Source: Raillietiella orientalis | Lineage: Eukaryota | Length of the DNA: 64,000 bases | Direction of reading: 5' to 3' | NCBI GenBank assembly: GCA_036172245.1 | Contig: JAYWIR010000030.1 | Span: forward strand, 1,426,001-1,490,000 | Shown here: one piece after another, positions 1-31,883 of the stretch | Layout of the letters: every line of letters begins with the position of its first letter | Position numbering within the stretch: the stretch's first letter is position 1 | Translations under genes and position numbers: made by a program | The notes under the pieces: model-generated | What the model was told of the DNA's origin: nothing | Database searches by the model: none | Seen by the model: the letters and a program-made list of their open reading frames with translations, nothing else

Positions 1-795
1 GGGGACCGCCTCCGGTTTCAAGATGGAGCAGGAGCCCTCACGGGCACCTCTCCAGTTGCTCAAAGGAGCGGACCCCCCCCTGTTGGGGGGTCCCTCCGAG
101 TCGTCGCCTCTTCACAGAGTGTGTACAAAGGAAAGAAGGAAGAGAGAGCGATTCCCTGAGGGAAGCTGCAGCGCCCCTTCTGAGTTTCGGAAGCATCCCT
201 TCGGGGGTTGTCTTCAGAGGAGCGAATAAAGGAGCGGTTCCCTTGTGGGTTCCCTCCGGAGAAGAAATTCCTAGAAGCGGATTCTTTCCGGGTTCCCTTC
301 GGAGAAGTTGAAATGGAGAGGACCACCCCCCATTGCGGGGGGTGTCCCTCCGGAGAGAATGAGGAAGGAGAGATTCCCTTCGGGGTTCCCCTTCGGAGAC
401 AATCAGGGTGGGAGGTGAGATCCCCCCCGGACGGGGGATCCCTCCCCAAGCGTGAGAGGAACGGACTCCGAGCCCTTCCTGGATTCAATAGGGCGGACCC
501 CATCCCGGGGTGCCCCCTATCCTAAAGAATATTACACTGAAGAATTACACGCCCCCCCCTGCGGGTTGCCGCGGACAGGCATGGAAACAAAAGTGTGTTA
601 ATGTTTAAAAAGAGCCACGCGCGCCGCGAGGCACGCGACCGGCTCTGAGGTACTTCGCGAACCAAAAAAAAGAAAACTCTTAAAAAAAAGAAAGCTGGAA
701 GGAAAACAGCGAAGACAAAAGAAAAAGAACCCAGGATTTCCATCGTCCTAGGCCAATAGTAACGATCTCCTCGTGGGGTCGCTACTGGCTTTAAA
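1..795 (-). mobile_element. 5' portion of a dispersed repeat, probably a non-LTR retrotransposon 5' UTR/ORF1 start; runs off the left window edge
   Basis: Reverse complement matches 17015-17400 over several blocks (ccagtagcga..gagatcgttactattggcc.aggacgatggaaatcc; ttggttcgc..agtacctc; gaatccaggaa.ggctcgga.tccgttcctctcac; gctcctctgaaga). The repeat is seen directly; the LINE assignment is inference. Confidence 0.5.
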
Positions 796-2843
796 AAAAA
801 AAAAAAAAAGTGCCCATGCTTTCCAAAGCATTTTAGCGGAATTTCAAAAAAGAACTTCTCGACCACAAATGAGACCTCAAGGTGTTGCAACACTCCCGAA
901 AAGCTGAATCAGACAGTTGCCCCAACACTAGCGAATAGAGAAATTTTCCACTCCAGCCACCATATCCAGAGGAAATCGAAGGAAGAAAACTCGGATGTGC
1001 GTCCACTCTTCTTCACTTTCCTGGTATTTCTATGTCCGAATGCCATCTTTTGGGTCTCATCGAAACTCCCTGAACGGCAAGGAATTTCAACAACCAAAAA
1101 GGACGTCAAAAAACTATGGGAAAGCATTCTGTAAATCGAAACCGCCTAATTTTTTTCCATGATCGCACCAAACCGCTGCTTCGTAGTTGTGAAAGAGACT
1201 GTGGGCGACTAGGCAAGGAGTAAGCCATATGGAAATGTTCGAAATAGGGATTTCACTTTCGGGAAGAAACAAAGCAAAGGTTGTGACCGATGTCATCTTG
1301 TCGGTACAGGGATAACTGCTATTGGTCGGGTTTCTAGATTGAGAGTAACGAGGAAGCTGCTCCGAGATGTGTCCGTAACTAATCCGTGTGTCACCAAATG
1401 TGACGACGTGAGCCATCCAAATGCGACGTGTGATAGTGTGCTTCTAGCTGACGCTTCTCAACGTAAGTTCCTCGGGAACGAAAGGGAAAGCAGACGTCTT
1501 TTAATGCTTTCCGATTGAAAATGAACACAAAATCGGTTTCGGAATGAAAACAAGCGAGCCTACGGGGTTTACTTCTAGAATTTTCTAGAAAGAAAAAGAA
1601 TGCAATGAAATATCCGTCTAGATCCTTTCTCCTCTTTTTCCTTTAGAACATTTTTGTTCCGAGAGCACTGATGGGTGCACAATTTCCTTCTTTTTCTTGT
1701 ATCTTAACCTTGCCTGTTGGCAAGGTCCACTTCCGTTGCACAAATACCATCACCCGTCAACCCTTAGTCATCAACAGATAGCACCTACATCATTTCTTTC
1801 TCCCGATACAACCTTACTACGACATCAAGGACTAGTAACTACGAGATTCCGATTTTTTTTTTTTTACTCTTATTTTTTTTTTCTTTCCAAAGATACGTTT
1901 GCTAAACTATGGAACCCATGACATCTCGCTTTAACTGTTCATATTACGACATGCCCCTCTATAGAAAAAGAGCATGTGTGGATCAGGAGATTCGGGTCAG
2001 ATGAAATCATGGGATACTGGAGCATCTCGTACACTCTTGGACGCGAGGAGGATTTCTCTGCAATTGTGCCCAGTGTGTCTTTCATTGGGGTTTTGTACAG
2101 AATCTGGTTTTTCATTCACGGATGACTTCTGCTCACAGCATTTATTAAGCTGCTGCAGCTGCGTGTGCTGACCAGAATAATCCAGATAATTGTCGGAAAT
2201 GGTCCAACTAGAAAGGTGCTCATTGAGATAGGTCGAAACTGTAACGTACACAGATATTCATTTGAGGCGGTTTGTATCCCGAAGACAAAGAATGTGGCTT
2301 CCACCAAGGAGTTCCTCACCAACCACCACCTTTGAGATAGGTGCAGCGGTTGGCTAACCATGAATTTGGACAGACGGAAACTCGGCTTCTCGGACATTTA
2401 CAATCTGCGCATGAGTATTCTAGAGCACTTTTCAAGTTGGACCAAATGTCGCGAACAGTCTACGACGAACCAAACAACACTTGATTGTCTCTTGTTAACG
2501 AAGAAGGCTTCATGTAATGCGAAGCAGGTGAGCTGTGCCGAGGGAAACTTCCGTGTCCTTTCCCAAGCAGAGCGCTAGCTGGTGTTCTCCTCACGCCAAG
2601 ACGGTAGGGAATTGCATTCAGGAAGTTGGCCACAAGATCCTTCTCAGGAAGGTAAGAATTCTCTCGATGGTTCCCTGATGGTGCATCTCCAGCGTGCTGA
2701 TGAACCCCCTCCTGCCAACAGCCACCGTGCTGCCGCACATGGCACCAGCAGAAAACCAGAGATTCTGTGGCTCATCGCCTGCAATGACGAAAGAGTCCGT
2801 ACGCATTTGCAGACATTCGTAGCTCGGGGGCAAAGAGGTGTTC

Positions 2844-3313
2844 GGGATCAACATCCCGAAAGATCATAAAAAATTAACATATGTGTCGATTATAGGAGGC
2901 GCATTTCAAAAGTAAAAGCCTATCGGATATAAAGAAAGAACGAATGAGAAGAACAAAAATGTATTGGTGGTTCCAAACACGCACATCTCCACCTCATTTT
3001 TCTGCGTAGTCACCACTTTTTTTCCTCCAAACACCTTCCATCCCGTGGAACGAGCTCTTTGAAACCCTCTGCAAGAAGTTACGCCGCCTGGGAGCTCAGC
3101 ACTGCAGTTTCCAACTCCTTTTTATGATTTTTATAATATACATTAATGTATGTATAAATACATATGTTGATGTACATGGTTAGCATGTGTATTAATTTTT
3201 CATCTTTATGATATATATATATATGTACATACTAAACACAGGTATTTATCTTTCATGATCTTATGAGACTTCGACATTCGGGTTTTGATCGTTGTAGATT
3301 TCGAACTAAACCC
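2844..3313. mobile_element. Non-autonomous Ricksha-like MULE (AT-rich core) carrying a mariner fragment
   Basis: Left end atcccgaaagatc; right end reads gggtttagttcgaaatc...aaacccgaatgtcgaa on the minus strand. AT-rich core at 3121-3260. Same terminal motif as the copies at 6071, 28311 and 40614. Confidence 0.6.
2893..3120 (-). mobile_element. Mariner-like element, 3' end fragment
   Basis: Closely matches 6125-6355 and 12054-12285 (atcggatataaagaaagaac...gtattggtggttccaaacacgcacatc...gagctctttgaaaccctctgcaagaagtt). Minus strand encodes transposase C-terminal remnants (ELVPR...GDYA). Confidence 0.8.
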
Positions 3314-3653
3314 GGAACCTGTGAAAGCAGTGGTGGTGCTGAATATGGATGCTCGTCTCCGCACAAGGATGTGCGGAACTCTTCCGTGCTTCATTTGTCT
3401 TCGTCCGACTTCATCTTCTCACTCCACACGGTCGCCGCTCCTATGGCTTTCTTTACTCTTGTCCGCTACGTTTCCTTGGGAACTTCTCTCGTACGCACCG
3501 AACTCTCTCATCTGCTGAGCCACTCTCGAGGTGTGATTCAACCTTTCTCGTATGAAGGAACGCTTCTCGTTACCGAAGACGAAGACGATGCCCCGCGGCA
3601 ATGTATTGCACTCGCCCAAGAATCCACCCGGTTCCCTCGCCAGCTCTAAATAC

Positions 3654-6600
3654 CTCGAAGGTGTCGTTGATGCTGCTATTTCTTGCAACGTGGTCCAGAG
3701 AGCTCCAGAAGTGGCTCGAATTCGCAGAACGCAGGTGATAAGTCTTTAGGAAGAACTGCAAACCTTCCACGAAGGTCGGGATCCCCAGGTGCTGCATGAG
3801 CATCCACATGACCGACGAAGCCTTGAAGAGAGAGCTCCGGCACCATCCATTTTGGGGGAGAAGTTCCAACGAATCCCAATATCCCTACCTTGAAACTGTT
3901 GAGGTTTTTCGTCCGCATCATATGGAGGACTTTGTCCTCGTCTTTTTCCGATAGAGGGGACGCACTGGCCCGGGAATCCTCCTCCAGGCCCGGGAGCAAG
4001 ACATCCACCAAAAATTGATCGTCCATCTTCCACGAGTCCCAGGCGATTCCCATGCCCAGATAAACCAACGACTGCACTGTCCCATCAAGAATCCAGGCAT
4101 CCGTCCACCATTCCATGGCGACCGTGCTCCCTATCCACTGCGACGAAGAGGAAGGGGTGGAATCGGAGCGGACGCTGTCCCTACCTGGCGTACCACTCCT
4201 TCCGAGAGGCGCTTGTAAGAAAGTTGCATCTCCTCGTCAGACAAGTTACCGGGATGCATCCACCTGAGAGGAAAAGTCATGGCTCCGCAGGTGAAGATCT
4301 CATCTTCGTCGGAGGACGCCAGCAGGATATCTGGAGGCAGAGCACGCACGTCCACCAAGGTAATGTGAGACGGACGCGAGAATTTTCCGGGAGGCTGATC
4401 AAGTCGCGGGATGGCGCACCTCCCACGAGAAGAAATTCCCTACCCTCTTCTTTCCTGCCTTCAAGCTTCGCTTCGCGCGCCGTTCCACAACGCGGGAGGA
4501 ATGAGGAGCAGAAGCCAAGTTCGCACCAGGATATCGAGACGTCCAATGCCCAGTGTCTTCCACCCCTCAGGTCACCTCGTGCAGTTTGACGACTCCTGAG
4601 ACGTGACACGCTGCCATTTGTTTCCTGCCCCGAAATCGGCTCTTCTGCTAGAAGGGAGGTCAGCGCGAGGGACAAGAGACGAGGGGAGCCTTCGGGCTTC
4701 AGAAGATCTTAGCTGCGGCTTCCCACGCATGCACGCGCACGGAGAAAGGGAAAGGAAAGAAGGAATGGGGGAGAAGTTCCAGCGCACCTCTCTGGTTTCA
4801 TATTTCAACCCTCAAGAGAACGAAAGTGGGCAGAAGTCAAACTGAGGTGCTGCTCTGTACATCGGACTGAGGAATCCCTCAAAAGAGGACAAGATTTGAA
4901 GGACGATGCTGTTCCACAGGATTACCCGTCCTGCAGCTCTGTGGAGCAAGCCAGGACAGTTTCCAGCTTCCGGTTCTTTTCGTCACTAGGAAACACAGGA
5001 GGGCCCTTCGGAAAGTTTTCCTGGCACGGAAGTCCTTCCAGAGCATCCACGGAGTTCTTGACAGCCACTGCTGATGGCATTTTTTCGAGCACTGTTACGT
5101 GTACGACCTCAGCCAGGAGGAAGATTCCCAGCAACGGTAGTTCCCGCTCAGGACCACTGTTTCGCACCCATCGCCAACAAGGCCAGAAGATGATTGAGTG
5201 GAGGAGATCGTGAAGAGTCTTCCGGGGCAATCAACTTATCTAATGAAAATTTTGGAGGTAGCTGACAAGGGAAGCTGTCATACGACGATGGGATACGATG
5301 ATCTGGGATACACAGGGTGCTTAATCCTCGTAGAGGACGAGAAAGAAGAGAAAGTGGTGTTAACAGGGCGCCTGGTTTGCCGTGCGGGGTGGCTGCGAAT
5401 ACCTAGCCTGGAAACCAACCCACCAAGATAAGATGGAGGCGCAGAAAGCAGGCTGAATACAGCTGGACCCCTCATCCTTCAAACTTCCAGACAGCAAATC
5501 CGATGATCTTAGCCAGCGGCAGGAGTCGAAACGCGAGAGTGGAAAAGGGGGTACCTCGTTCCAACACGGCCCAACGGACGGACGGGGGCGGAAAGAATAC
5601 GGATAGGGCCTCTTCGCATAAAGAGAATCGACGGTGGCTACGGGAGAGGGTCCGAATTGACCGGCATGGCGCTTCGAAAGCGGCGGCTGAGCGACTCTGC
5701 CACTCCACTCGGGTCAATCGCACGCGATGCTCAGTCTCACCATGCAGGTGCGCACACTTTCTTTTTTTTTTTCTTTTTACCCATTTTCGGAATCGGAAGT
5801 GGCAGTCCCAATAGATCTTCGTAGATATGCAAAAGATGGGTGAATGGTTCCTCTATACTAGCGCATGCGCCCACCTCAGTCGCTGTACAGTTTATGCTCT
5901 TGGAGCCGCTCTGAGTGGCCATGTTGATCCCTATCTTCCTCAGAATGCCAACGGCGAAGAAGAGCGCGTTGACGCTGATGTTGGGGGTCTGCGCGTACTT
6001 GTCAAGCACCTGAAATAGAGAGAAGAACATGGTCATCGTTGCGAATCAGCACAGCGAACTGCAGCCCTTTGGGCGGGGTTCAAAATCCCGAAAGATCTTA
6101 AAAATAAACACAAATGTTCATCAATACGAGGCTCATCTCAAAAGCAAGGAGAGATCGGATATAAAGAAAGAACGAATAAGAGGAACAAAAATGTATTGGT
6201 GGTTCCAAACACGCACATCTCCACGTCCTTTTTGTGCGTAGTCGCCACTTTTTTTTTTCTCCAAACACTTTCCATCCCGTGGAACGAGCTCTTCGAAACC
6301 CTCTGCAAGAAGTTCCGCCACCTGGGAGTTCAGCACCGCAGCTTCCAACTCCTCCCCCCTTTCCTCGAATCTGCCAAGGGGCGCGTTGTCTCGATGGAGA
6401 AGAACAATTCCTGATCTCAGCATTCCACGTCGCCGGTTCCAAGTGGCACGCCGCAGTTTGGAAAATGTTCCTACACGGTCGACTGGTGAAGTGATGGTTG
6501 CTCCATTCTTCCTAAAGTCCACCCTTCAAAAGCACATCCTTTTGCTGACACACACACTGTCGTGTCCGCACATCCCAGACCATTCAGAGATTCACATGGG

Positions 6601-9600
6601 AACTTTTTGATCACCCAGACCTGACCTCGAGCCCAGTGGGCACCAAGTCTTCCTGAACCTCAAGAAGTGACTCAACGGTTCGAGGAAAGGGGGGAGGAGT
6701 TGGAAGCTGCGGTGCTGAACTCCCAGGCGGCGGAACTTCTTGCAGAAGGTTTCAAAGAGCTCGTTCGTACGTATAGATTAACATATAAATATGAAAAATA
6801 AATGTGTATACTTATTATGCACATCAATATGTAGAGATTAACGTACACATTTATTTTCATATTTATTGACGTACATATCATTGATATCATTAAAAACATC
6901 CATTAATACATATATAAAGATTAAAAAACGAATATATATGATAAATATGTGCTAAATGAGTATATAAGTATCGAATTGTTAATAAACAAAAAACAATGGT
7001 GACAATTAAATATAGTGGGAAAAAATTAAAAAGCAAACAGATTAGAAAGACAAAATAGCAATTTGATATTTTCCCATCATTTCCATTACTCAATAAATGA
7101 AACCTCCTCAGTGAATGATAAATTCCATTTTCGGGATAACGATCGTTCCATAAATATCTACTTTTATAATTCGATATTTATGTATTCATTTCATATATTT
7201 GAATTATATATATGAATATACGTTGATACACATAATATACATATGTGTTTATTTTAATGATCCTTATCACACATCTTACTTTGTATACAAATCTACATTT
7301 TAATACTTAATAAAGAAACACATTATAAATCATATTAATAATAAATGCATCTTAATAAATATTAGTCAATACGTACGTTAAAGTAGATGTATTAATATAC
7401 ATAATAATTACACATATGTCTTTTTTACGATCTTTATCGTATGTATTAACCCATATGTTAATATATGCAATAAACTTATGTATTTATTTTTGAGATCTTT
7501 CGGGACTTTGATCTTTGACCACGTCTTAAAACGACCAACTTCCGTGGGCGCGGAATTCTTTCTCTACGGCTACTTAGATGTACTCGTGGTACAGTGCAAT
7601 ACCGATCTGAAGTCATTGCGGCGTTGGTACGAAGTACCACGCGCTGTTATTGACCGCTGATGCTGCGGCCCGATTAGGAAAGAGAACCTGATCGATGCCT
7701 CATTTGATTTCGTTATGGAAATGCTGCAAGGACATCAAATGCTCTGTCAGCTTTGCAGATTAGCGAAATACCAACGGTTGAGGACCCGGGATTTCAATGG
7801 CCACTCACCAGTCTTCCATCGTCTAGAATTTCCGATTCGGCCACGGGCATGTTCGATATAGATTGGTGGTGCATATCATGCACTATGGAGAGATTGACCT
7901 TTGCTCTAAAGTAGGGCTCGTCAAAGCACGGGAACACCGATCTGGCCCCAGTGGGAAACAGCGAAGCAACGACATATTTCCTGTAGGGAAGAAGAAAATG
8001 GTATTTCACCAGAATGTGCTCGTACAGCCCGTTGCAAACGTTCCTCCGAATGAGCACGTGGCGTGTGAGGAAAAGATGTGGTGCAGGCGCAAATCTTGCA
8101 ACTGCAAGAAGGCGAAAGCAACAGCCAGTCCTTCGCTTGTCTCGGATGAGCTGCCACCAGCAGCAGTCGATGGATGTACATTTTGAGAGACGGAAAGCAG
8201 AGCAGCTTACAGAAAAGCTTGTCCAGGATAGCGAAGACGCCCGAAGAACGAGAAATTCACACAGAGGTTCAAACTGTTTGGCCCCGCAGCTTCACCATGC
8301 ATTTCCTCAGAGGATCACCGGCAAGCGAGAGTCTTCCGTGCCAGTATTGTAGGTGTCCTGTTTTTTCCTCGCTCTCATTGGCAGGGAACACTCACTTCTT
8401 CCCGCAGCATCCTTAATTTTATTGCAACGTGCATAACACGTACTTTCATGACGTCCTCACGTCCATGGTTCAGCGCTTCCTGATGGAGTGATCCCCTAGC
8501 ACGAATTGCCGACACTTTAAAAAAATCATCAGAGTGAACACATGATGGTTCTGCCTCTGTGGTTTTAAGAGCTCGAATGGAAAAGGGGGAAGAAAAGACC
8601 GAAGTCGTCGAAAGTCACGCTTTCCTTTGAATTGCTTCTTTCCCCCTCTTGGTAAGTCAACACGGGAATTTGGGAACAAGCGGTAGTGAGGTGCTAAATG
8701 CCGGGAAACTCTTTCTTTCGAGCGACCGAGGCAACTGATCCATCTTAGTGATACCGCAACACGTGAGAGGTTTCCGCTTCACATATCACCGTCTGAGAAT
8801 GATCTGTTCCCAGAGCGTGGAACTGCCGCGAGTTCTGCTTTCCAGGACAGACTGATGTCTCAGTGCGTGCCTTCTCCGGGACTCTTACGAAACGAACTCT
8901 GAGGAAGATCTCTTGAAATCTCTCCGAGATAACTCACTCACTGACTCGTTCCGCCTGGATTATCACATTACTAAATCGCCTCTTCCTCAAGATCTCTTCT
9001 GGTTCAAGAAGGAATGAGAATTCGCATGGGGCTCTGAACGGTCAAGGAAAACCGCGTTGCTTGCGAGATAAGATGCGATCCATGAGATGATGCGTGCCTG
9101 GTGAGCAGATGCACCGCCGTGGCAAAGCACCCAACATCACGACGTGGGCTTCCTCTCAAATGCTTTCCATTTTGATTCCCACTTCTCATCAGGACCGATG
9201 ATCAAGAAGCAGAATGCTCGCTGGTCCAGATGGCGATGCTCTTGTTCTTTCGTGGCTTTGAAAGGGTCTGTAATCCTCAGCGCTTCTATCGACCGTCCTT
9301 GTTAAAACTAGGGGCGTCGCAAGTGGCGTCGTACTTCAAGAGCTCCAATTTCTGGTTTCCGCGTTTCTGACGAAAGTGCTACCCATTGCCCACCTCGAGA
9401 ACGCTGCAGCGGAAGGGAGCGAAATGCCCCAACAGTAAAGTGTGGTGACAAAGAGATGAGAACAGAAGTTTGACAGACCATGATGACGACGGAACCACGG
9501 TTTCAAACTTTTCGTTGAAGCACTCGAGAACTCTGAAGATTAGAAAGCAAAGAAAACTTGAAAAACGGTTCGAGTAGGATTAGAAAGAAGCACGGAAGGA

Positions 9601-12600
9601 GCGGAAAGACCAAAGAATGTATTATCTCTTCCCTTCCCTACACAAGTGATGAGGATCCCCAGCTCCGTCTTCACCTAACTGGGAAGTTTCGTTTCCACTC
9701 CCATTCATCTCATAATGGCTTTTCCTCCCACCTTTGAATCCAAGGCCTAACTTTTCTGTAGGTTGCGGATCACACTCTTGTCTTGCAAACTTTGCTTGTT
9801 TGATGTCTTCCACCATCCGGCACAGCGCTAACGAGATGAGCGAATCCGGTTTCTTCCTTCTTTGATGCAGCTGTTGAGTCACGGGCTGTCCTCTCTTCAT
9901 TCCACGTCTTTGCAAAGACTCTCTCGCCATCAACGAAAAATATTGAAGTAGCCAAAATGTGGGGAACTCATTTCAGGGAACGGGAAAAATCTTCCCTTAC
10001 AGGGCGAGGCACTGCTACCGGTTTCATCCGTTTTGTTCTGTAAGATTTCAATTCAGCCGACCTTGAGAATTTCTAGAGGAGTTTTCTAAAGTTGCCTTCC
10101 CAGTAGCCATCCATGAATATTGCATTCTTGCTGGGAGGATCTCCTGAAACGTTTAGAAGCCTGAAGAGTGTGGGAAACAACTGATGGACATCTCCGGATG
10201 GCTCTCCAAGAAAGAGACTTTCCACCTGAAGTCATGAGTTAAGATGCGTCTTAGTTGTCCATGAGAAGTTCTCGAAAAATCCTTTGCCACGTTTCTTGGG
10301 CAGATGATCTGGAGTTCGTTGCACATAAGGAAATTCCTGACCATCGGTCTTCTAAATCTACTCTTTGCTGGTGATCTTGCTGGGTTTGCAAAATCTCTCG
10401 ACTAAAGAGACACCCATAAAATGAGGTGCTGGTGAAAACCAAGAGATGCTAAAGAGTGGATTTCGTAATGAGGTTTTCCTGAGGCGTCTCGATTTAAGCG
10501 TCTGCAAACTTGTGGTCCTTCCTTCTTGCCTCTTTTTCTCTGTGCTTCCGGATTATTTCAATTCGAATGGAACGGCTGGGCATGTTTCTTTCCCCCTGGA
10601 TGATCCATTCCCCACGTGGACAGGGAAAACCACAGGCACAGGATTGGACCGTTCCCTTTTTTTTTCTTTTAATGAGAAACTGACCTGCTGATCTCTGTCC
10701 CACCTTCGTCGTAAAGTATGAGTCCCTGTTTCGCATCTGTGATTCGGCCAGAGAACTCCACATGCAGCTTGTACTTCTTGTCGGCGTTCAATCCTCTATT
10801 CAAGATGAGCTGCAGCTGGTCTCTTTCGGCAACCGTTTCCATCCTGAGCACATGTATCACATCTCCTTGGTCCTCGGAAAGGATCAGCTCAGCGATGTTT
10901 AGATCCTTGGAATGGATCACCAGCAAAGAGGCATCCTCCTTGCAGAACATCATGATGGTAGCGTTGCCTGGAGAATTACAAAGAAAAACACGAAGAAAAA
11001 AAAAAAAAACTGAATTATGTATTCGCCATTTTACCAGTGAAGGACCTTTCCGAGATATTAGGGTGTATGTATACGTCATAGAGGTACGGCTCAACACTTT
11101 GAGGAAGCCGTTGTCTTCTCCAGGCATACTTGGGAGTGGTGACCGTCGTAGAAGGACCAATGGTTGTCTGGTTGTCCGCTTTTTGAGGGCACTCTGAGGA
11201 AACACATCATCTGAGCACCCTGTCGATCTGCACGCGGATCACCGCAACTGGAACCACCTAACGCCAGCAACGAAACCTGCCAGCCCACACTGAGACAGCG
11301 CGGCACCTCGGCGTCTGCTTTCACTCCCCCGGAATGCTAACGTCTTCAAAGTTCCTCTACCTCACGCTGCGAAAGAGGTGGACCCTAGTCTTGTAGATTT
11401 CGGCTTTACCCCTCTGACTTCACCGCCCACAATGCGATCCCTCACAAGACGGGGAGGGAAGGCGTTCTTTGCGGTCGGTTTTCCGCCATGGCTCATCACC
11501 ACCGGCGCGCGTCTCCAGAAACTGGACAAGAAGAGAAACAAGAGGAGCATTGCTTTCGAAGTCTCTGAGATGGTCGGAGATAGTGTGCTAATTAAGAGAG
11601 CTTCTACGCATGTTACATCTTCCGGATGTCTCATCTTCACACATCTTTCCTCCCCCCACTCCAATACAACTATGCTCTATTTTACATATGCTCTATGTAC
11701 ATGTGAGAGTATCATGTAGACACTGTACACTGCAGTTTTCCTTAATACATTTTGTATTCATGAATTTCCATCAAAAAATGCTAATTTTTAATGATCAAAC
11801 AAGGCGCTCAACCACTGTAGATCACGAGTTCAATTTCATGTTTGGAGTTGTGCAGCCCCCTTCCTCAAAGACGCCGTTTTTCTAGATAGCTTATGGATTT
11901 CATTAGGGTACAGTACATACAAGACAAGTGCTTACTTACAATTAGAGATCATAGAAAAAAACAAGCGATGATCGTCAAACCGAATGACCGTTTAATCAAT
12001 AGGAACTTTTACTTTGCGGTCAGCCAAAAGAGCAGCGAAAGCAAAACTGAAAGTACGAGGCTCATTTCAAAAGCAAGAACCGATCGGATATAAAGAAAGA
12101 ACAAATGACAGGAACAAAAATGTATTGGTGGTTCCAAACACGCACATCCCCACGTCCTTTTTGTGCGTAGTCACTTTTTTTTTTCTCCAAACACTTTCCA
12201 TCCCGTGCAACGAGCTCTTTGAAACCCTCTGCAAGAAGTTCCTCCGCCAGGGAGTTCAGCACTGCAGCTTCCAACTCCTTCCCCCTTTCCTCGAACCGTT
12301 GAGCCACTTCTTGAGCAGACAGCGTGTGTTACCAAGGGGCGCGTTGTCGTGAAGGAGAAGAACAATTCCTGATCTCAGCATTCCACGTCGTCGGTTCCAA
12401 ATGGCACGCTGCAGTTTGGAAAATGTTCCTACACGGTCGACTGGTGAAGTGATGGTTGCTCCATTCTTCCTAAAGTCCACCCTTCAAAAGCACATCCTTT
12501 TGCTGACACACACTGCCGTGTCCGCACATCCCAGACCATTCAGAGATTCACATGGGAACTTTTTGATCACCCAGACCTGACCTCGAGCCCAGTGGGCACC

Positions 12601-14950
12601 AAGTCTTCCTGAACCTCAAGAAGTGACTCAACGGTTCGAGGAAAGGATGGAGGAGTTGGAAAATGCAGTGCTGAACTCCCAGGCGGCGGAATTTCTTGCA
12701 GAAGGTTTCAAAGAGCTCGTTGCACGGTATCCAAAGTATTTGGAAAAAAGTGGTGACTACGTAGGAAAATGACATGGGGATAGAGCAATGTCTCCTGCCG
12801 AAAGGGACTTGAGGGACGAGGGGCGCCACAGCGATCGCTTGTTCACTTTCGATGAGAACCACAAGATGGCCGCATCTGCACCGAGATAAGGAGGAACTCG
12901 CCTGCATCCCAGACAAGATGCTAAGAACGCCAGAGAGCACTCAGAGGTCCCTTAATGTTTTTCAAGCGCATTTTTTTCTTTTTTTGCTATTTATTTTTTG
13001 TTTACTCCCCCCTTCCCCAACCCCCCTATTTTTGCCTGTGCGACCACTGTCGGCAAGATGCTCGCAAGCAGTTAACGCCCCTCGGAACTTTTACCGACGT
13101 AGTCGGACCCTCAGCCCCCTGGAGGACGGGAGGCAATGGAGGAATTTATGCGTAGATGTGCATAAGTTTTGGCAGTCCGTGGGGTGGCCCGGGCGGAAAC
13201 CCGCCGCGCTGCAGGATGATCCACTTAAGACCGGCCCCACTCGGCAGGCTCGTCCCGTCGTATTCCCGGTCTTCCATGTTCGCCGCCTCCTCCCCACAAA
13301 TCTCTAGAAGGTCTCAGCGCTCCCGGAATAGCAGATCCAGGCTCCTGCAGGGTGCGCGACTTGCAGGTGGGAGGCCTCGATCTGCGCGCGTCTTTGCCGC
13401 GGGGCCGGATTCGAGGAAGACAGGCTTTAAGTGCCGCGACCCGTGGAAAGGAACTGCCAAGTTGTGGGATGCCCACCCTGGGGATCTTCCCAGCGCGACG
13501 GGTCCTCGTCCTCGGCACTTTCTTCTCGCGTCACCTCCACGCCAGCCCAGCTCAAGATTCATTCTTTGTCTGCTTGCTGTTCACTTCTTCAACTGCGGAA
13601 GGGGCGGCGGGTGGGTTGTGGGGCAAGGTCGATTCGTGGGTGCGCGGTGGTCCCCCCCTCGGCGATGCCCTCTCGTTCGCGGAAGTGGGCCACTCATCAA
13701 GGCGACCAATGCAGACCCAATGCAGGAGTTGATGACTCGCCACGGGGATCACGGCGGGGCGTAACCTCGCCAGAGGATGTCCCTTCCACACGCAGATCAA
13801 AGCGAGGCCCAGGAAGGAGACGTAGGGATGACTCAGAGAGATCCTCCTGTGCAAAGCACCCGGGAAAACTTCGTTCCGATTTTCTAGGGGAGCGCGCGTG
13901 AGGCCGCCATTTTGGAAAGCTGCCGAGCCCACCCCGTTGCCGAGGCTGAGAGGAGACAGTCTTCTTGCCAAGATGGGAGTGGCTTCTGCGCTCCCTCCGA
14001 ATGTATGGGAGCTGCACTTTCGCAGGCTGCTGGTTCGACGATCCCCTTCGGAGCTTGATAGGAAATCGAAGGCACGTCCGTGGTCAGTTCCCACCACCAC
14101 CACCCCGGAAGTAACTCCGCCACCGACTTCCGCGTGCCTGCAAGGACCTAAACAGCCACTTGCAGCACAAGAGGGTTAGGATCTCCCGGATCCTTCAGAG
14201 GAGATTCAAGAGACAGATCTCGAAAAGAGCACGAAAATCCATTCAGGATCCACACCCTGATCGCCTCCACCCTTCCGGACCAAGTAACAGCTGCAAGAGA
14301 AGGAGGAGGAAGGAAGAAGGAGGCACATGGAAAACGCGTCGGCCTCCTTGCAAGCAAGATGAGGCTTTGGTTCTCCAGGATCGTCGCCGCCAAACTAAGG
14401 AGCCGTTCGAAAACCTCTACCCGTCCCCGTCTCCCCATGGGGAGAAGGAAGAGCATCTCCAGCAGGGCAGTTCCCTTAGCAGAAAGGCCACCCTCCTCCA
14501 GATCAGCAAGCAGCTTTTTGGAGCTTTAGCTCAAGGTTCACCCCCGTATCTCGAACCCCTATTCCTCCAGGTCGAACGGGGGACTCGCCTCCGCGCATTT
14601 CCATTGGCGTTCCAGGAGACCCTCCTCTTTCCGGAACATCCTACACAGGATGTTCCGCGCCCCTTTCCGGGTACGGTCCTGGGAGAGTGTGAGTCCGGGA
14701 GAACCCCAAGGCACTCGGAGAGACGGAAGTCCCCTGGGTTCTCATGCTTTCCCACTTCTCCTCCCATCCCCACCTCCCGCTGTCTGCGCGAAGGAGGGGA
14801 ACTCACCAATCAGAGGGCGCACGGCATAGATCATGCTGATGAAGAAGGCGGTGAGCAACAGCAGACCAATAAGGGTGAAGCACTGCTTGCGATCGACCTT
14901 TACCAGCCTCACATCCGTCTTATCCGCCTTGAGGGTAGGCAGCCGCACCC
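3654..14950 (-). CDS. M1-family (aminopeptidase N-like) type II membrane protein, predicted catalytically inactive; partial (first and last exons not resolved)
   Basis: Phase-compatible GT-AG exons: 14950-14807 (TM anchor CFTLIGLLLLTAFFISMIYAV), 11193-11035 (RLPQSVEPYLYDVYIHP), 10967-10685, 7980-7809 (LFPTGARSVFPCFDEP), 6009-5781 (YEDLLGLPLPIPKM), 4330-4185, 4137-3889 (WIGSTVAMEWWTDAW), 3821-3654 (ASSVMWML..LG..F..GL). Total 1550 nt with no stop codon. Confidence 0.88.
6071..7520. mobile_element. Non-autonomous Ricksha-like MULE with nested fold-back mariner, in an intron of the aminopeptidase-like gene
   Basis: Inverted termini ttcaaaatcccgaaagatc (~6079-6098) and gatctttcgggactttga (~7494-7511). 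Internal AT-rich block ~6990-7190 is homologous to ~28745-28940. Confidence 0.75.
6125..6765. mobile_element. Rearranged non-autonomous mariner (irritans/Hsmar2-like terminus), fold-back structure
   Basis: TA followed by cgaggctcatctcaaaag terminus. Minus strand: DFRKNGATIT...KLRRATWNRRRGMLRSGIVLLHRDNA and ELVPRDGKCLEKK.SGDYAQK. Plus strand: RFTWELFDHP..DLEPS..VFLNLKK. These match mariner HDNA, YSPDLAP and GDYVEK regions. Confidence 0.85.
8700..10450 (-). mobile_element. Probable highly degraded Ty3/gypsy pol remnant
   Basis: Fragments in RT-RNaseH-integrase order on the minus strand: YGCLFSREILQ...LEDRWSGI and HGQLRRIL...VSFLESH (RT-like), LELLKYD (RNase H end-like), RILIPS..EILRK (integrase N-terminal-like). 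Many stops and frameshifts; judged by eye only. Confidence 0.35.
12054..12781. mobile_element. Rearranged non-autonomous mariner, second fold-back copy
   Basis: TA+cgaggctcatttcaaaag terminus; near-identical internal layout to 6125-6765; LLLHDNAP motif; inverted arms ~12147-12314 and ~12615-12781. Confidence 0.85.
13100..14700 (-). mobile_element. Possible degraded ORF1 (gag-like) of an L1/Tx1-type LINE
   Basis: GC-rich intronic block. Minus-strand fragments RVWILNG...DLSLESPLKDPG and LICVWKGHPLAR (degenerate CCHC-knuckle-like), interrupted by stops. Confidence 0.35.
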
Positions 14951-19902: not shown

Positions 19903-22900
19903 TCACAGTAGATTGACTACAGCAAGAAGGAACAGAAGACCAGCTCCAGAAGAACATAACGAACGGGATGCACACGTTAGCGCGTCCATGGGAACGGGAA
20001 TCGTGGGGGCGTCGTGTGCACGGTAAACGGAAGAGCAATTCTGCAACAGAGTGACGCTGACGATGCACGTCTCACACACAGCACGTGTACGTACGTCGCA
20101 GAAGAGCTTGCATTCCGGACAGATCAATCCGCCTATGTGGAGCCAACCGTTGGACCACAGCTGCACCTTCAGCTTCTGCTCGGTGTAGGAACACGTGAAC
20201 GTGCGGCCGTCCACCTGGGAAAGAGACCTGCCCAAACGGAAGCAATTCGGAGGAAACCTCCTTACCAGAATGTTCAAGAAGCCGTTGCTGCACTCGTATT
20301 CGTAGCAACCGGCGCCGTAGTTGCTCCACTGGCGCGTCTGCTTGTTGCAGGCGTGCTCTTCCCACTGGACGTTCGTTTGCTCGAAGCAACGCGACGATGG
20401 TCCGTAGCGCTCCAGGGCGAAGTTCTTCTCAGGACCTGCAAAGCAAACCTGGGAATCCACAGCCGGACGCTTGACGACGTCTCCTCACTAGGATTGTTTT
20501 CGACGAAACCGCAGCGCGACTCGTGCCTCTCCAACGCGTCGTTCTTCCACGTGAACTCCTGAGGGTAAGGACAGTAGTCGGCGAGACTGACAGATCCTCC
20601 GTAACGGGAAACCACGGAGGAGGAAACATTGGGGAGCTTCTCGAAGTTCTGGAAGGAGAAAGCGCGGGGTAGAAGATGGTAAGCAGAGAGCAGGCAGCCC
20701 CAACCTGGAACCGAGCTGGGAGAGGTAAGCCATGGTCTATAAGATTGCAAATGGCCACCGACATGCCATCGAGGGTGCAGCGCATCTGCAGCGGATCCTT
20801 CTTGATATCGGTGCAGTAAGGGCTAGGAGACTCGCTTCTGCTCAGGAAGACAGGGAAACGCTGGGTTGTTTCGACGCTCCCGGGGAAAAATGGACGGGAG
20901 TACCTGGATTCTCTATCTTCTATCCACGACATGCAGGACTTCATGGCGAAATCACAACCGAGACCCTTGCCCCAGGTCAGGTCGTCTGCAGATGAATAGT
21001 CCGGTTGGTACCAGCCTGTATCTTCCATGAGCGCCAAGGTTATGCGTGAATAGGAGGCTTCCTGAGTTTGAGCTCCGGTCATGGCCTCGTTCTGGACAAA
21101 TTCGGAAGGTCAGCAGAAAGCTGGAGGCGACGGCGAAGCGCGTGACGTGCTGAGAGGCGAGTAGCGCGCGCAAGAGAGTTGGAGGTGAGTGGGGATGGGG
21201 TGGAGTAAGGGGAGAGCAAGCGGACAGGCGCAAAGAAGAAGCATAAATCGAAAGAGAACGGCGCGGAGACGCCCACGCGCCGCACGGGAAGGCGCGCTTT
21301 ACCTCGAACACGCGCTTTTCCCAATGAGTCAGGAAGGTGCCCTCGTGTCCCTGATCCTCAAGCTCGGCACCTTCCAAGATGGAGCAGTTGAAGTGGTTCC
21401 GCGCTTCCTCCACCACCCTTCGCGTGACGATAACGAAGACGTCCTTCGTCACGTGGCCGGAGGCGACGCGCCAGAGCTTCCTGCGTATTTTCTGCACCAC
21501 GCTTGACTGCTTCTCGGCCAGGAGCAGTCTGTCCGGAGTTTGATTTCACGGGCACGGAGTAGGGGAGGGGGTAGGGGGCAACCGATCTTATACGTACGCA
21601 TCTGTGATGATGGGTTTCCCGTGTATCCCGCGTCGAACGAGGGGTTCCCCGTCCTTACCACGGAAGTATGCGTAGAGGCTGGCGGAGAAACCCAGGGCGT
21701 GGAGGATTTCGTGCTTCACGGTGGACAAGATGGCTCCTACGTCCTGCGAGCGCACGCTGATGGCGTCGGGACAAAAATTGGCGTGCCCGGCGACCGGTCT
21801 GGAGACGCAAGGAGGAGGGCAGGTGCAGGGTGGGCGGGGAAAGCAGTCGCCATCGGGACCGATGCAGGGGTCCCGGAATGGGTTACCTGTCCAGAGAATT
21901 TTCCTGCTGGCAGTGGGCCGCGTACGAGACGGTGCTGCCGTTCAGGCAGCGCGTCGTCTGCAACGCCGACACGTACAGGCTGAAGTCAGAGTTCGTGACT
22001 CCCTTGCTCCCAGAGGTTTCCGTGATCATGCAGTGGTTCCCGAAGTGGTTGCATACCCGGCAGTCCTGCCCACAGAACGGAACCCAGCTGTCAGCACATT
22101 AAGTCGCAAAGGGGTCGCGAAATGTAGTGAGAAGGAGAAGACGGCAAGGCACCACCACCCACCGGGAAAGCCCAAGACCTCTCTCCAAGGGTGCACCAAA
22201 CGAGCAAGCAAAGTCCACGCGTGTTGCACCCGCGTGCGGGCGCGCGCGCGCGCACAGGGCGCTCTATCAGAGTCCGTGACTCAAGGACGAGACGACTTCA
22301 GCCAAGAAGCAAGGATCGGTTGCCTCCCGTTACCAGGGTTTTCCAGGTACATTAACACGAGCGCGTTTGAGGGCCGCAAGCTCTTGGAGGCCTTTTCCCA
22401 GGCAGCCAAGTACAGTTGCTGCTGACCGACCCAGCCTTGCGGCCGTGCATGGAGGCTTCGCAAGATCGAGTCGCCACGGCACGTGTCAAACGTGGGAATA
22501 TTCCAAAAAGAGCAAAGAAGAGTTGGGCAAGGGCGCGCAACCACAGTCCTTCTACTCCGAATCTCTTTCGAGGAGGATGCATGGTTCCTTAAGGAAACTT
22601 TGCATGCAATATGGGGACGCGCGCCTTCTTGGAAAGCTTCAAGGGGAAAGGTACGCCACCGAAAGATGACCAAGCACTCATGATGATTTCTCATAAAAAC
22701 CCAAAGTGCGGCAACATGAACAATGATAAGGGAAAATGGCATTTTCAAGGAGCATGCGGCTGTAAACGCTTCCTGATCGACCACCCCGATCTCTGGGGCC
22801 TCCTGTCTCTGGCATGCCTCTGAATGAGAATTCCGCCCCTGCAGAGCCCGATTTTTGACGACGTCGACAGAAAGGGTCTCTTCTGCGAGGTGCTGGAAGC

Positions 22901-25900: not shown

Positions 25901-28900
25901 TCATACAATAAAAATCGGGTGGAAAATTTCTGGAAATGCTTTGTGTAACATCGGCAAATTTCTTCGATGGTTCCTGGAAGTTTTCGTGATGGACGTTCAC
26001 AAAATCATCTCGTTCAGGATAAGGGTATACATCGCGCGTAGTCTCCCCACATTTTTCTAAAAAAAAAGAGAAAACCTTGCTGACACCGTTTTGCGAGTGC
26101 ACTTGGAAAAGAAAAAAGAGAGAAGGAGAAGGTGCAAATATCCACCACATAAATGCTGAGATGTTGCTCTCGTTCGCTGGTCGCGCTGCAGGAGACGCAC
26201 GATGACAACCACAGGCCAGACGAAGCGTTTGTGCGACCTCCAAAAATGCATGGAAGACATCTGCCTGCCTCCAGGAAAAGACGAGCATGGAAAGGAGCGC
26301 ACGGACACACACAGAGAGAGAGAGACGGAGAAAAACATGAGCGGAAAGAGAACGAACACGCCATTCTCTTAGTCTTAGAGCTTCCAAGAGTGTTAAGCGC
26401 GAAGAGCGAGGTAACAACAACAGAGAGAGTTGATCAATCGACCTCGGACCGCCACGGTGCGTCCAGCGCTCCGATGTAGCGGAAGAGAAATATGCACGAC
26501 CGGTGTTGGAGCTCACCTGCAAAGAAACCTCCGAGGTGACAACGTTCCGGTGGTCAAGCCGAAAGTCATTCGATGACGGGAAGGGGGGGATCGCCGGACG
26601 GGAAACGGAGATTTTGGCGAAGAAAAGCAGCCGGGAGAAGGACCGGGAGCTTGTTCGGAAAACGAGAACGAATCCGAGACACAAAAGCCAAGGGAACAGG
26701 AAAAGCACGAGAAAAAAAGAAAAAAGAAACCTCCAAGGGATCCAGGAATAACGGTGAATGGATGATGAAGAGAGAAGCCGCCGGCAAGGCTGTCCAAGAG
26801 AATGAAGAGTCGAGAGAAAGTGAAAAGGAATGGTACAGAAGGCAGTTGCCATCTGAAGCAGAGACATGGAGAAGGGAGTTCTATAAGTCACTGGGAAACC
26901 TCCATGCTTCCCAAATACCGAGCTTGCAGTCAGAGAGTTCCGAGGAAGAACCACAGGAGTGAACGGTGCAAGGCCGAGTTTCTCATCTCAGGATCAGAGA
27001 TCTCAAAAGAAATCTTTCGCTGTGCAGAAGCTGACCACATCAACTTCGATGAAGTGTTCAAAGAACGCTCCTCAAAAGATGCAATCCACTAAGTTCCCGA
27101 AAGTCCAGGGCTCCCGCTCCGGCACCCCACCGCCGGAGGGGAATGTTTGCCGAATCCACGCATATATCATTGTCAGTCTGCTGCTAGTTGTCCAAAGTCA
27201 AGGAAACGAGGAATTCCCAGTGCCACGGGAAAAAAGGGTCAACTAAAGTAATCCGCAACGAAGCCAAGAAGAGAAGCAAATTTCGGATGAAAATGAATGA
27301 ATACGTAAGAAGCGCTGTTCGAGAAAACAACGAATCCGCTGAGAACGGGTCTGGTTCAAAAACCCGGAAGGTCGTGAAAAATAAACAGAGATGCTTATTC
27401 CTCACAGATTAATGTACAAATTTATTTTACTATGCATAGTTATTCGTATTTATCAACAGCCATACTACTGGAACAGATACATTGATTCAGCACGTGATTC
27501 CACATTTTATCAATAAAATTAATAAGCTGCGGATCATATTGTTGAAATTATAATTGTTATTCCAAATTATAAAAAATAAATTACATATATTCATATAAAT
27601 ATATTGATACACATATTTCTATATACATGAGTGTGCGTACTTATATTTATTTATATATGTGTGTGTACATATTTATTATTCCAGATGACAATTTCTGCAA
27701 CTGACGAGCTGAAGAAACCAACAGCTTCTTGCGACAGATTAGTGGACGCTGAAACTGGAAGACTAGCGGACGCTGTGAACTGGTGAAGACTTTCGCTCCT
27801 CCTACGCTTGATCTTTTCTCCGGGAGTCAAACGCCAAGGAAACCGGTGGTGCCTTGCACACGAACCATTAGATGTGTAACGGAGATGAAACGCGGAGTAA
27901 CCAGGAACAAAGTCACACGACACAAAACTGAGACTTAAGAAGCGCACATTAAGGCAGGTCGGATTGAATGACCAGAAGCGTCAAGAAGGTTACACTGCCT
28001 GCAATTCAAACACAGTTCAGAGTAAACAAGAAGACCGCGAGGTGGAAAACCGATGGTTATCCCCTTTCATCAAGAATCCACTGCACGGAAACTTCAGCAG
28101 GAAGAATCCAAGGCTCGCCTGGTCAGCGCCGGAAGAAACCAAAGCAAAAACAAGTACAAAAGGTTGCTCCTTCATGCGAGAAGACAAGGCGATCGGTTGC
28201 TGCCGCTGCCAACAAGCGAGAAGCACATAAAACGAAGACGGATGATGGAAGTCTCCACAATGATCATCCACTTTTGGATGGTGCACAGATAGATGGAACA
28301 GAAAAAGGAGGCGGTGCCGCTCGAAATCCCGAAAGATCACGAAAAATAAGCACACGCGTTTCAATGTTTTCAAATTTGTTTTCACCATCTTCGAAATACG
28401 TATTTATCTATATATAAACATAGATATATGTTTATGTACAGATGAGCATATTGCTTATATGGAGAGATCAATATACATTTAAAAGATTATAAAATAAGTA
28501 CATATGCTTATCATGTATATCAACATATGTATTTAAATATAGATTAATATACAACTTTTGTTTTACAATGCATATTTACTAATATTTATTAACATACATA
28601 TTATTGATATAATTAATAACATCTATTAATACATATACTGAAGATTATAAAAAATGCATACATAAATGCTCATTATATATATTTATATACTTCCATATAT
28701 ATATATAATAAGCATTTACTAAAGGAATATATACATTAAAAAACAAAACGCAATAATGACAATGGAGAATAGTGGAAAAAAATAGAAAAGCAAACAGATG
28801 GAAAAAACAAAAAAGAAATTTGGCATTTGCTTCTCCTATCATCTCCAACACTCAACAAATGCTCAGCAAATGATGAATTCTATTCTCGGGATTTTGATCG

Positions 28901-31883
28901 TTTCATATGTGCCCATAATTCGACATTTATAAATTCATTTAATATACGATTATTATATACAAATACATATTAATGTACATAATCAACATACATGCTTCTT
29001 TTTCATAATTTTTAATATGCACATCAACACACATTACTAATCATATTAATAAATTGCATACTAATCTATACATGAATACATACATCAACACATGTAATAA
29101 ACACACATGCTTATTTAAAAAAATATAGTTATAATACATATATATAATAAACATATATATTTATTTTCTTACAATCTTTCGGGATTTCGGCTTTGGCGAC
29201 TTTCAACCAAACCCAAAAAGAACAAACCAGACGGGCTACCGTCTTCCTGGTTACAATGAGATCTGTGCTTGGAGTCTTCATCTGTTTTCCGGGATGGCCT
29301 TCACGCTGAATTTAGCCAAAAGGACCTACAGCTTCCCTCTGAATCGAGCTCTTTTTTTCATACCGTTTGATTCCGTAATGAAGGGATAAAGGGAAACAAC
29401 GATCACAGTTAATGCCTCCGATCCAACGTCAGCGAACATTTCCTACACATCGAAGAGCGCTTCATATGAACTGTTGAATGGAAGTCGGATTCTCAACTAG
29501 AAAAGGTCACCACATTCTTTGACCCGGTTTCCGACACAGGCTCAAAGAAGGTGTGAACTGGTTTCGGAAACCTCCTTCCAGAAAAGTCGCTCGCACATGC
29601 ACTCGTAAACCTGGAACCTTAAATAACAGCGTCTTTCCCGTTCGTTTCTGGCTGCCTGTGAAGACCTTCGACCTGTTTTACTGCAACTACGGTGGACATG
29701 GGCGCATCCCGAAGGGCACTAGTGTCCTTCCTCTTCGCTTCTTCACCGTTCGCCTTTCCCTTCCGAGTGCACGCTACGTGCTATCTGACACGATATCGTT
29801 TTTTCGCTTCTATTTTGCTCAGCCGGAACAACACCAAAGTTCGAACTGCGCCCGAAATTTCCTTCTGATGAAAGAAATCCGCTTCTCTCTCGAATTTCCG
29901 ACGATGACTTTCCCATTCGAGCAGAAGCAGCATGACCTGGAATCCTCAAAAGGAGAATCAAAACACCAAACGGTTGAGAAAAATCCTCGAAACCGTGACT
30001 ACACCCAACTCGAAAAAAGGAAAGGAGGATGAAAAAAATCCATTTCTTATAGAATGGCTTTTTCTTTCTTTCTTCCAGTTTCTCAAATAGAAAACAAACA
30101 AACAAAAAAAAGAACTTGAATTATTTTGAGTCGGAAGATGGTGGTATATCCTTTCTAGAAGAAAACCACTGCTCATGGAGCTAATAGAGAGCTATAGCTG
30201 CTGATCCAACCTCTATTGCAGATATCGAATGGCATGAATTTTTCCCTGTACAAAAAATGAAATCCTAAACTCCGCCTTGAAGCAATGCACCCGCACATGC
30301 CTGGGATGTATTCTTAGTGGAAGAGGTCATAAATCGGTCATAAATAATCGGCTACGAACGTTTCCGCGTGACGCCGCTCGCCGATCCTGCACAAAGGCAC
30401 AACAAAATCTACAATCATCCAGCATATACATAAGCTCGTAACGGAGATATCGATTCCCAGAGAACAACATCCACAACTTGAATTTCCCGGTATTTGGATA
30501 CAGCAGTGCTCGAACTTCTCACTTTGATTGACTGCTTGCAGTTCCAAACGTCCTTGCATTCGACCCGCCAGTTGGTCGCGACCTCTGCTTGGGAATTCTG
30601 TTCGTATGAACGTTACCAGAGAGGATGCTCAATCAGATGTCAGTTTTCCCTTTCATAGGGATGTCGCTATGTTTATTTAAGCAGGGTCCACTTCACTCGA
30701 TGAGTAACGATTGGATTCCATGCGAACTTCGGGTTAGGCCGCATGACTGATGGTACCAGGCACACTTTTGTGACGACCTGATGGTACTCACTGGTAGATC
30801 AAACTGGCCACCGTTTTTCGAGGAATAAAAAATCATCAAGTCATCCTTCGATGGCGCTTACATTTCTCAAGAAGACATCGAAGATGCAGGTGTCCGGGCG
30901 CGCAAGCGGCAGAGGACCCGAGTTCAGCTAACATCTTCATAGGGCATAAAGTAAGAACCCACTTGAAGCTTCAGCTTTTAAAAGTTTCGTTTAAAGCTTT
31001 CCTGGAAATTTATCAAAGCAAAATTTCCAGCTTCCAGGACTTCTGAAGATCTGTGGGTTCGCTCACGCACTGCAGAACCAGTTCGCACATGCGCGTGCAT
31101 ACAGAAAACGAGGCTGTGCTGCTGCTGTTGTAGCTAAGCGTGTGCGCAGCTAAGCGCATGTTATGCTGCGCGTCTTTGCATTTGCACGCAGAGCAAAGGC
31201 GCGCCCGCAACGGTAACCCTCGCAGTATCCATGAGACGCACAAACTTGTAAATGTACAAATTTCGTGTCGCGGCTGTCTGAGATCATCGGTTTTTCAGTA
31301 GGCAACGAACGAAAGATGAAAAGGGAAGAAGAGCATCATTCCATCATCATCTCGCAACCTTGCTCTACATTTGTGATGCTGATTTACTCTGAGAACAGTA
31401 GCTATTGCAACATGAAAAAAGATGCGAAAGCAATCAAAAGACACTCGTGTGCAGGTCCCGAACGATGCCACGACTGCTCGAGAGAGATAAACGATAGGAG
31501 ATGAAGATGACTCATGGGATCAAAGTGATCGACTTATTCAGGATGCAACGGAATTTTGCGAGCACTTAAACTTACCTGTGTAATCTGATGCCAACTGTAG
31601 TTTTTCTAACCCTAAGAGCCTTTTCCCAATAAAGGATGGCAGCTGGAAGGACTGTATCCTGCGAAGGGTATATACACCTCAGCAACGATCATATCTACTC
31701 ACATTTATTAGTGCTAATTTATCCTTGCTCAACCTGGAATGACCTCCACACAGTTACGTGAACCGCAGAGACATCACCACACCTGTATATGCTCTTATCG
31801 TAAAATACTTTGATCCGAAGGTGCTGATCAAAACTTCTCTTCTTCATAATATGATGAGGTTCCAAGTGCACACCAGCTACTAC
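19903..31883 (-). CDS. LMLN: Leishmanolysin-like peptidase / invadolysin (M8 zinc metalloprotease); N-terminal exon(s) not located
   Basis: Exons 31883-31783, 31733-31703, 31658-31576, 23743-23626, 22065-21887, 21798-21598, 21528-21303, 21091-20904, 20837-20705, 20648-20489, 20435-20266, 20214-20095, 20040-19903; all GT-AG and phase-compatible. Motifs: HLRIKVFYD, CGEVEVPEEHL, AAHCQQE..DRPVAGHAN, KHEILHALGFS, HWEKRVFENEAMTG, LALMEDTGWY, ADYCPY. Confidence 0.95.
26750..27260 (+). mobile_element. Possible pogo/Tigger-type transposase remnant
   Basis: Frameshifted fragments EWMMKREAAGKAV..W..F.K (CENP-B HTH-like), SQRVP, HINFDEV (NxDE-like) and KKGSTKVIR, in the expected order. Weak match, judged by eye. 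Confidence 0.3.
27350..27680. mobile_element. Truncated Ricksha-like MULE copy
   Basis: ggttcaaaaacccggaaggtcgtgaaaaataaac resembles the left terminus at 6077; followed by an AT-rich core. No right end found. Confidence 0.45.
28311..29214. mobile_element. Non-autonomous Ricksha-like MULE in the 7.8-kb LMLN intron
   Basis: Termini cgaaatcccgaaagatc and atctttcgggatttcg...ccaaaccc. Candidate 9-bp TSD aaaaaggag/aaaaagaac (7 of 9). Core homologous to the 6071 copy. Confidence 0.75.

Follow-up and report, generated by a model that had tools for sequence, protein, structure and literature searches.

Can a gene keep the fold of an M1 aminopeptidase, together with an open reading frame, once every residue of its active site has been replaced? 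This question is raised by a locus on the minus strand of contig JAYWIR010000030.1 of Raillietiella orientalis (assembly GCA_036172245.1), of which we analyzed 64,000 nucleotides (nt; positions 1,426,001 to 1,490,000); this whole stretch is hereafter the window, and all coordinates refer to it. The original prediction, made from the letters alone, had taken the locus for a maintained membrane pseudopeptidase of the M1 family with an intact gene structure. Its observation turned out to be largely right and its interpretation is supported in part. Judged by its sequence, the M1 homolog is almost certainly a catalytically dead M1 fold, and the best explanation of the locus as a whole, which we hold to be probable but far from secure, is a non-peptidase homolog with a frame kept by selection and a non-catalytic role.

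The exon borders were set from tblastn searches with nine full-length M1 references in combination with the visible splice sites. The resulting gene comprises seven homology-supported exons, running on the minus strand from 11191 down to 3570 (1488 nt), and one guessed first exon of 141 nt, with which the spliced open frame amounts to 542 codons (1629 nt); the total of 1550 nt given in the prediction was not reproduced by either count. All seven introns (218, 67, 2704, 1799, 1450, 47 and 67 nt in model order) begin with GT and end with AG, such that 14 of 14 splice dinucleotides are intact, in agreement with the canonical splice sites claimed at the outset. The span originally singled out, 3821-4330, reaches on the minus strand from the first base of exon 6 to the first of exon 8, and the peptide strings quoted for it read exactly as written in the translated exons.

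The spliced model matches a profile of 37 full-length M1 proteins with 266.0 bits (E 4.2e-83). The match spans positions 46-503 of the 931 in the profile, and the alignment is unbroken across the six homology-supported junctions. Exon 2 (11035..11191) holds a linker and the start of the M1 N-domain (RLPQSVEPYLYD...) and lies in an open reading frame (ORF; 11206-11018) that matches profile positions 44-93 with E 2e-7; two adjacent AGs (11196 and 11191) are candidates for its acceptor. The N-domain continues through exon 3 (10685..10967), which is flanked by GT/AG sites and matches profile positions 91-174 with E 1.5e-12, and exon 4 (7809..7980), in which FPCFDEP is kept and which aligns to IRAP with E 4.5e-11. 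Exon 5 (5781..6009), which ends in LPIPKM(D), carries the end of the N-domain and the start of the catalytic domain; its E value is 0.29 when it is searched alone, and it falls within the unbroken alignment of the spliced model. The catalytic domain extends through exon 6 (4185..4330), placed by the profile alignment of the spliced model and without a match when searched alone against solved structures, exon 7 (3889..4137), which contains WIGSTVAMEWWTDAWILDG and ends in NSFK, and exon 8 (3570..3821), where the domain ends and the frame is closed by a TAA stop at 3572-3570.

Pfam assigns the same two domains independently, with matches in 4 of the 13 ORFs scanned. Peptidase_M1_N (PF17900) is found in 10669-11238 (exon 3; E 3.3e-8, profile 20-110 of 186) and in 7794-8291 (exon 4; E 1.1e-13, 115-172 of 186), each match exceeding the cut-off of 25.8 bits, and Peptidase_M1 (PF01433) in 3676-4236 (exon 7; E 5.2e-8, 33.2 bits against a cut-off of 27.7) and in 3570-3884 (exon 8; 27.5 bits against the same cut-off). 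The intron between exons 6 and 7, just before the W of WIGS/WFGN, occupies the same place as apparent introns in the M1 genes of other animals. Eight truncated M1 predictions in the database (P0007, P0012, P0014, P0028, P0036, P0054, P0089 and P0092) have F, L, W or P followed by Q right before WFGN and unrelated sequence upstream, which looks like a translated CAG acceptor of an intron at this position. The intron position common to the M1 homolog and these fragments suggests that the gene structure was inherited and that the locus is not a retrocopy.

The state of the active site was read from the profile alignment of the spliced model. DEIFT occupies the GAMEN columns (posterior 0.7-0.8), GAMTF the GLiTY columns (0.9 or more), EGVVR the HELAH columns of the HEXXH motif and LDG the NEG columns, and the column of the transition-state Tyr in sYsKG holds Ser, with Phe adjacent. 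These are the pairings that the original prediction had put forward, including the absent Tyr and the visible GAM at GLVTY rather than at GAMEN, and the profile reproduces them. A phmmer comparison of exon 7 on its own with solved structures pairs WILDG with the WLNEG of 4kx7, a glutamyl aminopeptidase (E 1.3e-9). At the zinc site, the two His are replaced by Glu and Arg and the third ligand, Glu, by Asp; the general-base Glu is Gly and the GAMEN Glu is Phe. The six canonical catalytic and ligand positions thus read FEGRDS in the M1 homolog as opposed to the canonical EHEHEY. A seventh loss is found in exon 4: the 'FEP' segment of the N-domain has lost its Glu to a deletion, seen as a one-residue gap in the alignment of SLF-PTGAR with QFEPLAAR of IRAP. 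In M1 enzymes, the Glu or Gln of this segment contacts the amino terminus of the substrate, to which the GAMEN Glu also binds.

An alignment of GAMTF with GAMEN was considered and rejected: it needs a 5-residue insertion and an 8-residue deletion and is not the choice of the profile, and the Glu is lost regardless, since it would be Thr. An alternative exon with GAMEN and HEXXH, for which the prediction had pointed to 4331-5780, was not found: no ORF of at least 15 residues in that interval or elsewhere in the window matches profile positions 318-370 (2528 ORFs, filters off), and a scan of every minus-strand frame of 1-13000 for the strings G[AGST]MEN and HE..H was negative, the sole HE..H of that region (at 3795) being encoded by the other strand. 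The zinc ligands, the general base and the Tyr are gone, as are both clamps of the amino terminus, which makes catalysis and canonical binding of peptide N-termini implausible. The term pseudopeptidase is thus well supported by the six replaced positions and the deleted N-domain Glu. A peptide binder that works through the normal pocket, as one of the roles originally suggested, is disfavored, both amino-terminus Glu having been lost and no domain IV lid being present in the window.

How unusual this pattern is can be seen from the relatives of the gene. At E <= 0.001, an exhaustive search with exon 7 retrieved 130 proteins that share 26-44% identity with it. When the whole model is compared, identity to the best relatives is 25-30%, the top one reaching 30% across 482 residues. 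All six catalytic columns are covered in 116 related M1 domains; the canonical EHEHEY is found in 110 of these, six have lost one to three of the positions and none has lost all six, in a sample that favors canonical sequences, its members having been selected for resemblance to exon 7. In a tree of 38 sequences and 454 columns (FastTree, LG+gamma), the M1 homolog groups with no subclade and has the longest branch, at least 2.33 compared to a median of 0.75 and a maximum of 1.62 for pendant branches. Word-index protein searches with exons 7 and 4 for longer proteins returned nothing at E <= 0.001, the method being ill-suited to a divergent protein, and a scan of metagenomes returned one locus of 23% identity and no ortholog.

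A further question is whether the frame has been maintained or is decaying. When codon usage is trained on neighboring genes, the score per codon is +0.143 bits in the proposed frame as opposed to -0.32 and -0.12 in the other two, and it lies between -0.06 and -0.25 in introns and downstream DNA. Exons 2-8 offer 167 single-base changes that would give a stop, in addition to 24 splice-site bases; under neutral drift, these exons and their splice sites would escape damage with a joint probability of 0.02-0.06 at K=0.02, 0.003-0.015 at K=0.03 and less than 0.001 at K=0.05. No more than about 2-3% of neutral drift is therefore compatible with a frame and splice sites that are intact. The six catalytic codons, in contrast, required at least 10 changes in 18 nt, for which P is about 4e-10 at K=0.03, which argues for a loss of the active site during a period in which the frame was kept. 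Of the near-invariant M1 columns, 29 of 57 are retained as opposed to none of the six catalytic columns (hypergeometric P about 0.01, calculated by hand). The drift bound favors a maintained pseudoenzyme, and any death of the gene would have to be recent. The claim that the gene is maintained thus draws support from an intact frame and splice sites despite the very long branch and from fitting codon usage, and stands by inference only.

Several observations weigh against a maintained gene. The exon borders were selected by us so that the frame stays open, and the drift bound assumes equal mutation rates and an indel-to-substitution ratio of 0.05-0.1, which is a generic figure. Column retention (51% of conserved as opposed to 26% of variable columns) was dropped as a test of selection because a neutrally decaying, once canonical gene gives a similar ratio. 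No ortholog or paralog was found among the proteins searched, the closest being the 26-44% identical matches of exon 7, and exon 8 has the lowest coding score of all exons (-0.035). At the 5' end, putative exon 1 (11410..11550; ATG at 11550, in-frame ATG also at 11634, donor GTAAAG, coding score +0.10) is a guess that lacks homology support, and it is there that the hydrophobic segment lies, 13 residues long (AMLLLFLFLSSFW) and present, among 44 ATG-to-donor candidates for a first exon, only in the 11634/11550-11410 ORF (maximum KD15 1.31-1.61). At this length, the segment would make a short membrane span, and a signal peptide is at least as good a reading of it; of the transmembrane anchor originally proposed, and of the membrane location with it, what stands is a hydrophobic stretch of this length in a guessed exon. 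At the 3' end, ERAP1_C (domains III-IV) is absent from the whole window by Pfam, tblastn and profile searches over all ORFs. No tblastn match extends past about residue 572 of the nine M1 references, and the 73 minus-strand ORFs downstream of the stop all score below 0 bits in a permissive profile search, like the plus-strand control. The frame ends exactly at the border of domains II and III, at profile position 503 of 931. Neither AATAAA nor ATTAAA occurs within 770 nt of the stop, only AGTAAA at +113, and a fragment (2844..3119) of the composite repeat that also lies in intron 4, 86% identical to 6076-6353 and 89% to 12054-12280, is located about 450 nt past the stop. Two candidates for the missing part were rejected: a frameshift suspected in exon 8, where a second frame reads GIVFVFGNEKRSFIRERL and resembles the start of domain III, has no profile support, and minus-strand ORFs at 2000-2870, taken by eye for ERAP1_C helices, gave nothing with Pfam or the profile. 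The intact gene structure of the original prediction thus applies to the open frame and the splice sites and is doubtful at the 3' end.

The missing C-terminal half, the repeat fragment, the lack of a poly(A) hexamer and the weak score of exon 8 fit a truncated, possibly dead copy. Under this explanation, a long-functional pseudopeptidase lineage would have lost its C-terminal exons here, for example via the rearrangement that left the repeat fragment, and the locus would be an unexpressed or decaying remnant too young to have acquired stops, for which the drift bound leaves room up to a K of about 0.02. However, there is no stop, frameshift or broken splice site in 1485 nt and six introns. 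The 3.5 kb of the window downstream of the stop contain no ERAP1_C-like sequence, but the introns of this gene reach 2.7 kb, so that the missing exons may lie outside the window. Moreover, three APN-like genes of C. elegans are described as having a catalytic-type domain only, without ERAP1-C (PMC10368266), so that a short form is not in itself a sign of death. A recently dead copy is accordingly a possibility that we take seriously and yet consider rather unlikely. The protein may be complete with two domains, it may be specified by the first exons of a longer gene that extends beyond the start of the window, or it may come from a truncated copy. The TAA stop is overlapped by a possible GT donor (TCG followed by GTAACG), and we lean only modestly toward a protein that ends at the domain II/III border, with 542 residues, over one that splices on beyond the window start. 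A different kind of objection is that the protein is still an enzyme with an unconventional site, in which Glu371, Asp394 and others serve as ligands. Two of the three ligand positions are indeed carboxylates (Glu and Asp), and carboxylates bind metals in other enzymes. Nevertheless, with Gly as the general base, Arg as the second ligand and both the Tyr and the two amino-terminus Glu gone, with the pattern seen in none of the 116 related domains, and with the C. elegans homolog MNP-1 presumed inactive after fewer losses (PMC10368266), residual catalysis appears very improbable. The notion that the locus is no gene at all, being composed of chance open frames or a mis-assembled region, is refuted for practical purposes by the E value of the collinear match to the M1 profile over seven exons and by the independent Pfam and solved-structure matches; the window, moreover, contains no N.

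The scenario that we prefer, a non-peptidase homolog with a selected frame, can be spelled out as follows. A protein-coding gene of an animal-type genome specifies an M1 aminopeptidase fold unable to act as a peptidase, in which the beta-rich N-domain and the thermolysin-like domain are kept and the zinc site, the general base and the Tyr are destroyed; the homology, the exon structure and these losses are shown by the sequence. The active site would have been lost long ago, while selection held the reading frame open, and we infer that the protein serves a function other than catalysis, or did so until very recently. That the gene is functional at present seems to us somewhat better supported than the opposite. 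By analogy with MNP-1, its most likely role would be that of a secreted or surface-tethered protein-binding module rather than that of a binder of peptide N-termini. A more specific version takes the TAA as the true end. The gene would then encode a secreted M1 pseudopeptidase that stands alone, consists of two domains, has all seven residues of the pocket replaced and lacks the lid of domains III-IV, and selection in a fast-evolving animal lineage would have preserved it as a protein-binding module with an open groove. This version goes well beyond the preferred scenario, and we think it unlikely. If that ending were true, the protein would have a minimal architecture that is not described for dead M1 homologs.

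The introns of the gene had been described as loaded with transposable elements; repeats with other copies in the window were seen in intron 4 only. This intron contains a composite repeat (6125..6765) that is 90% identical over 673 nt to 12054-12721, a copy upstream of the gene, and that has inverted arms (6282-6369 and 6766-6679, 96.6% identical), as well as an AT-rich repeat (6859-7255) that is 69% identical over 436 nt to 28582-29002; the 2.7-kb and 1.45-kb introns have no repeat copy in the window. A mariner-like identity was considered for the composite repeat, found no Pfam transposase match and was dropped, and we name the element only as a repeat with inverted arms. Elsewhere, positions 1-540 hold a series of short hairpins composed of stretches of C and stretches of G (such as 318-350 and 414-445), and 438-806 has an inverted copy at 17310-17005 that is 70% identical; this hairpin region probably represents a repeat family. 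Scans for Rfam families and tandem repeats detected nothing relevant.

The part of the window that holds the M1 gene is comparatively rich in GC, and the third-position GC of the model is 0.65 compared to 0.46 in the exon of an SMC gene (50598-53414) and 0.34 in an isomerase exon (45853-46332). An open frame of 228 codons on the plus strand (3903-4586), antisense to exons 6-7 and without a family match, is probably a by-product of this coding strand, rich in GC at third positions; more generally, no family could be assigned to ORFs on the opposite strand or within introns. No second M1 gene was found in the window by tblastn or by the profile search over ORFs. The neighboring genes encode a leishmanolysin-like M8 peptidase (20432-21545, minus strand), methylthioribose-1-phosphate isomerase (45853-46332, minus strand), an SMC protein (49008-53414, plus strand, with an uninterrupted ORF of 939 codons) and an aspartyl protease (58786-59208, minus strand). 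The best matches of the isomerase exon come from chordates, arthropods, molluscs and other groups, at only 50-58% identity. This level of identity and the scatter of the animal matches suggest an animal-like genome that has no close relative in the protein collection.

What would such a gene add? If it is expressed, the M1 homolog would be an extreme addition to the short list of M1 pseudopeptidases, with six of six positions and the N-domain Glu lost, and it could reveal which parts of the M1 fold serve binding alone. In the annotation, it should not be called an aminopeptidase. No new question is opened by the locus, given that inactive peptidase homologs are common and that the function is guessed only by analogy. 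Dead M1 homologs are already known, namely MNP-1 and Tma108, and dead peptidase homologs are a recognized class; TAF2, which is nuclear, and AC3.5 of C. elegans are further non-peptidase homologs within the M1 family. In a 2024 review of pseudopeptidases, Tma108 is the only M1 member named (PMC11266112), and MNP-1 is the one studied animal example.

A further comparison is with Gone early (Goe) of Drosophila, a membrane or surface metallopeptidase homolog of the M13 neprilysin family that is described as lacking the zinc motifs and as acting in cell-cell communication (PMC4242634); it is an analogue from a peptidase family other than M1. Within the M1 family, the homolog resembles the canonical metazoan ectopeptidases (aminopeptidase N and A, IRAP, ERAP1 and ERAP2; PDB 4kx7 and 7zyf) in its homologous N-domain and thermolysin-like domain, in FPCFDEP and the WW.D.W core and in one intron position, and differs from them in having no GAMEN, HEXXH, NEG Glu or catalytic Tyr and no ERAP1_C in the window. 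Tandem multi-M1 proteins of 1400-2700 residues in the database (P0002, P0058 and P0064) include units with three of the six catalytic positions replaced, and fusions of dead with live M1 units seem recurrent in animals. The degenerate units of these proteins are fused to canonical ones, whereas the M1 homolog stands alone and has lost six of six.

Two M1 proteins offer a closer comparison. Tma108 of S. cerevisiae is listed among the pseudopeptidases and is proposed to bind rather than cut; it is described as retaining all active-site residues but one and as holding nascent chains in the pocket that binds N-termini (PMC11266112). In the M1 homolog, by contrast, this pocket is dismantled, which makes a mechanism of the Tma108 type unlikely. 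MNP-1, the matrix non-peptidase homologue 1 of C. elegans, is an M1 homolog that is presumed inactive, lacks three of the four HEXXH+E residues and has reported roles in cell migration and gut immunity (PMC10368266). Like the M1 homolog, MNP-1 has an M1 fold with zinc-binding and catalytic residues missing, and it provides the functional model of an extracellular M1 fold without catalysis. MNP-1 has 781 residues and has lost three of the four, whereas the M1 homolog, which as seen in the window has 542 residues and no C-terminal domain, has lost six of six together with the N-domain Glu; the two are likened here by residue loss only.

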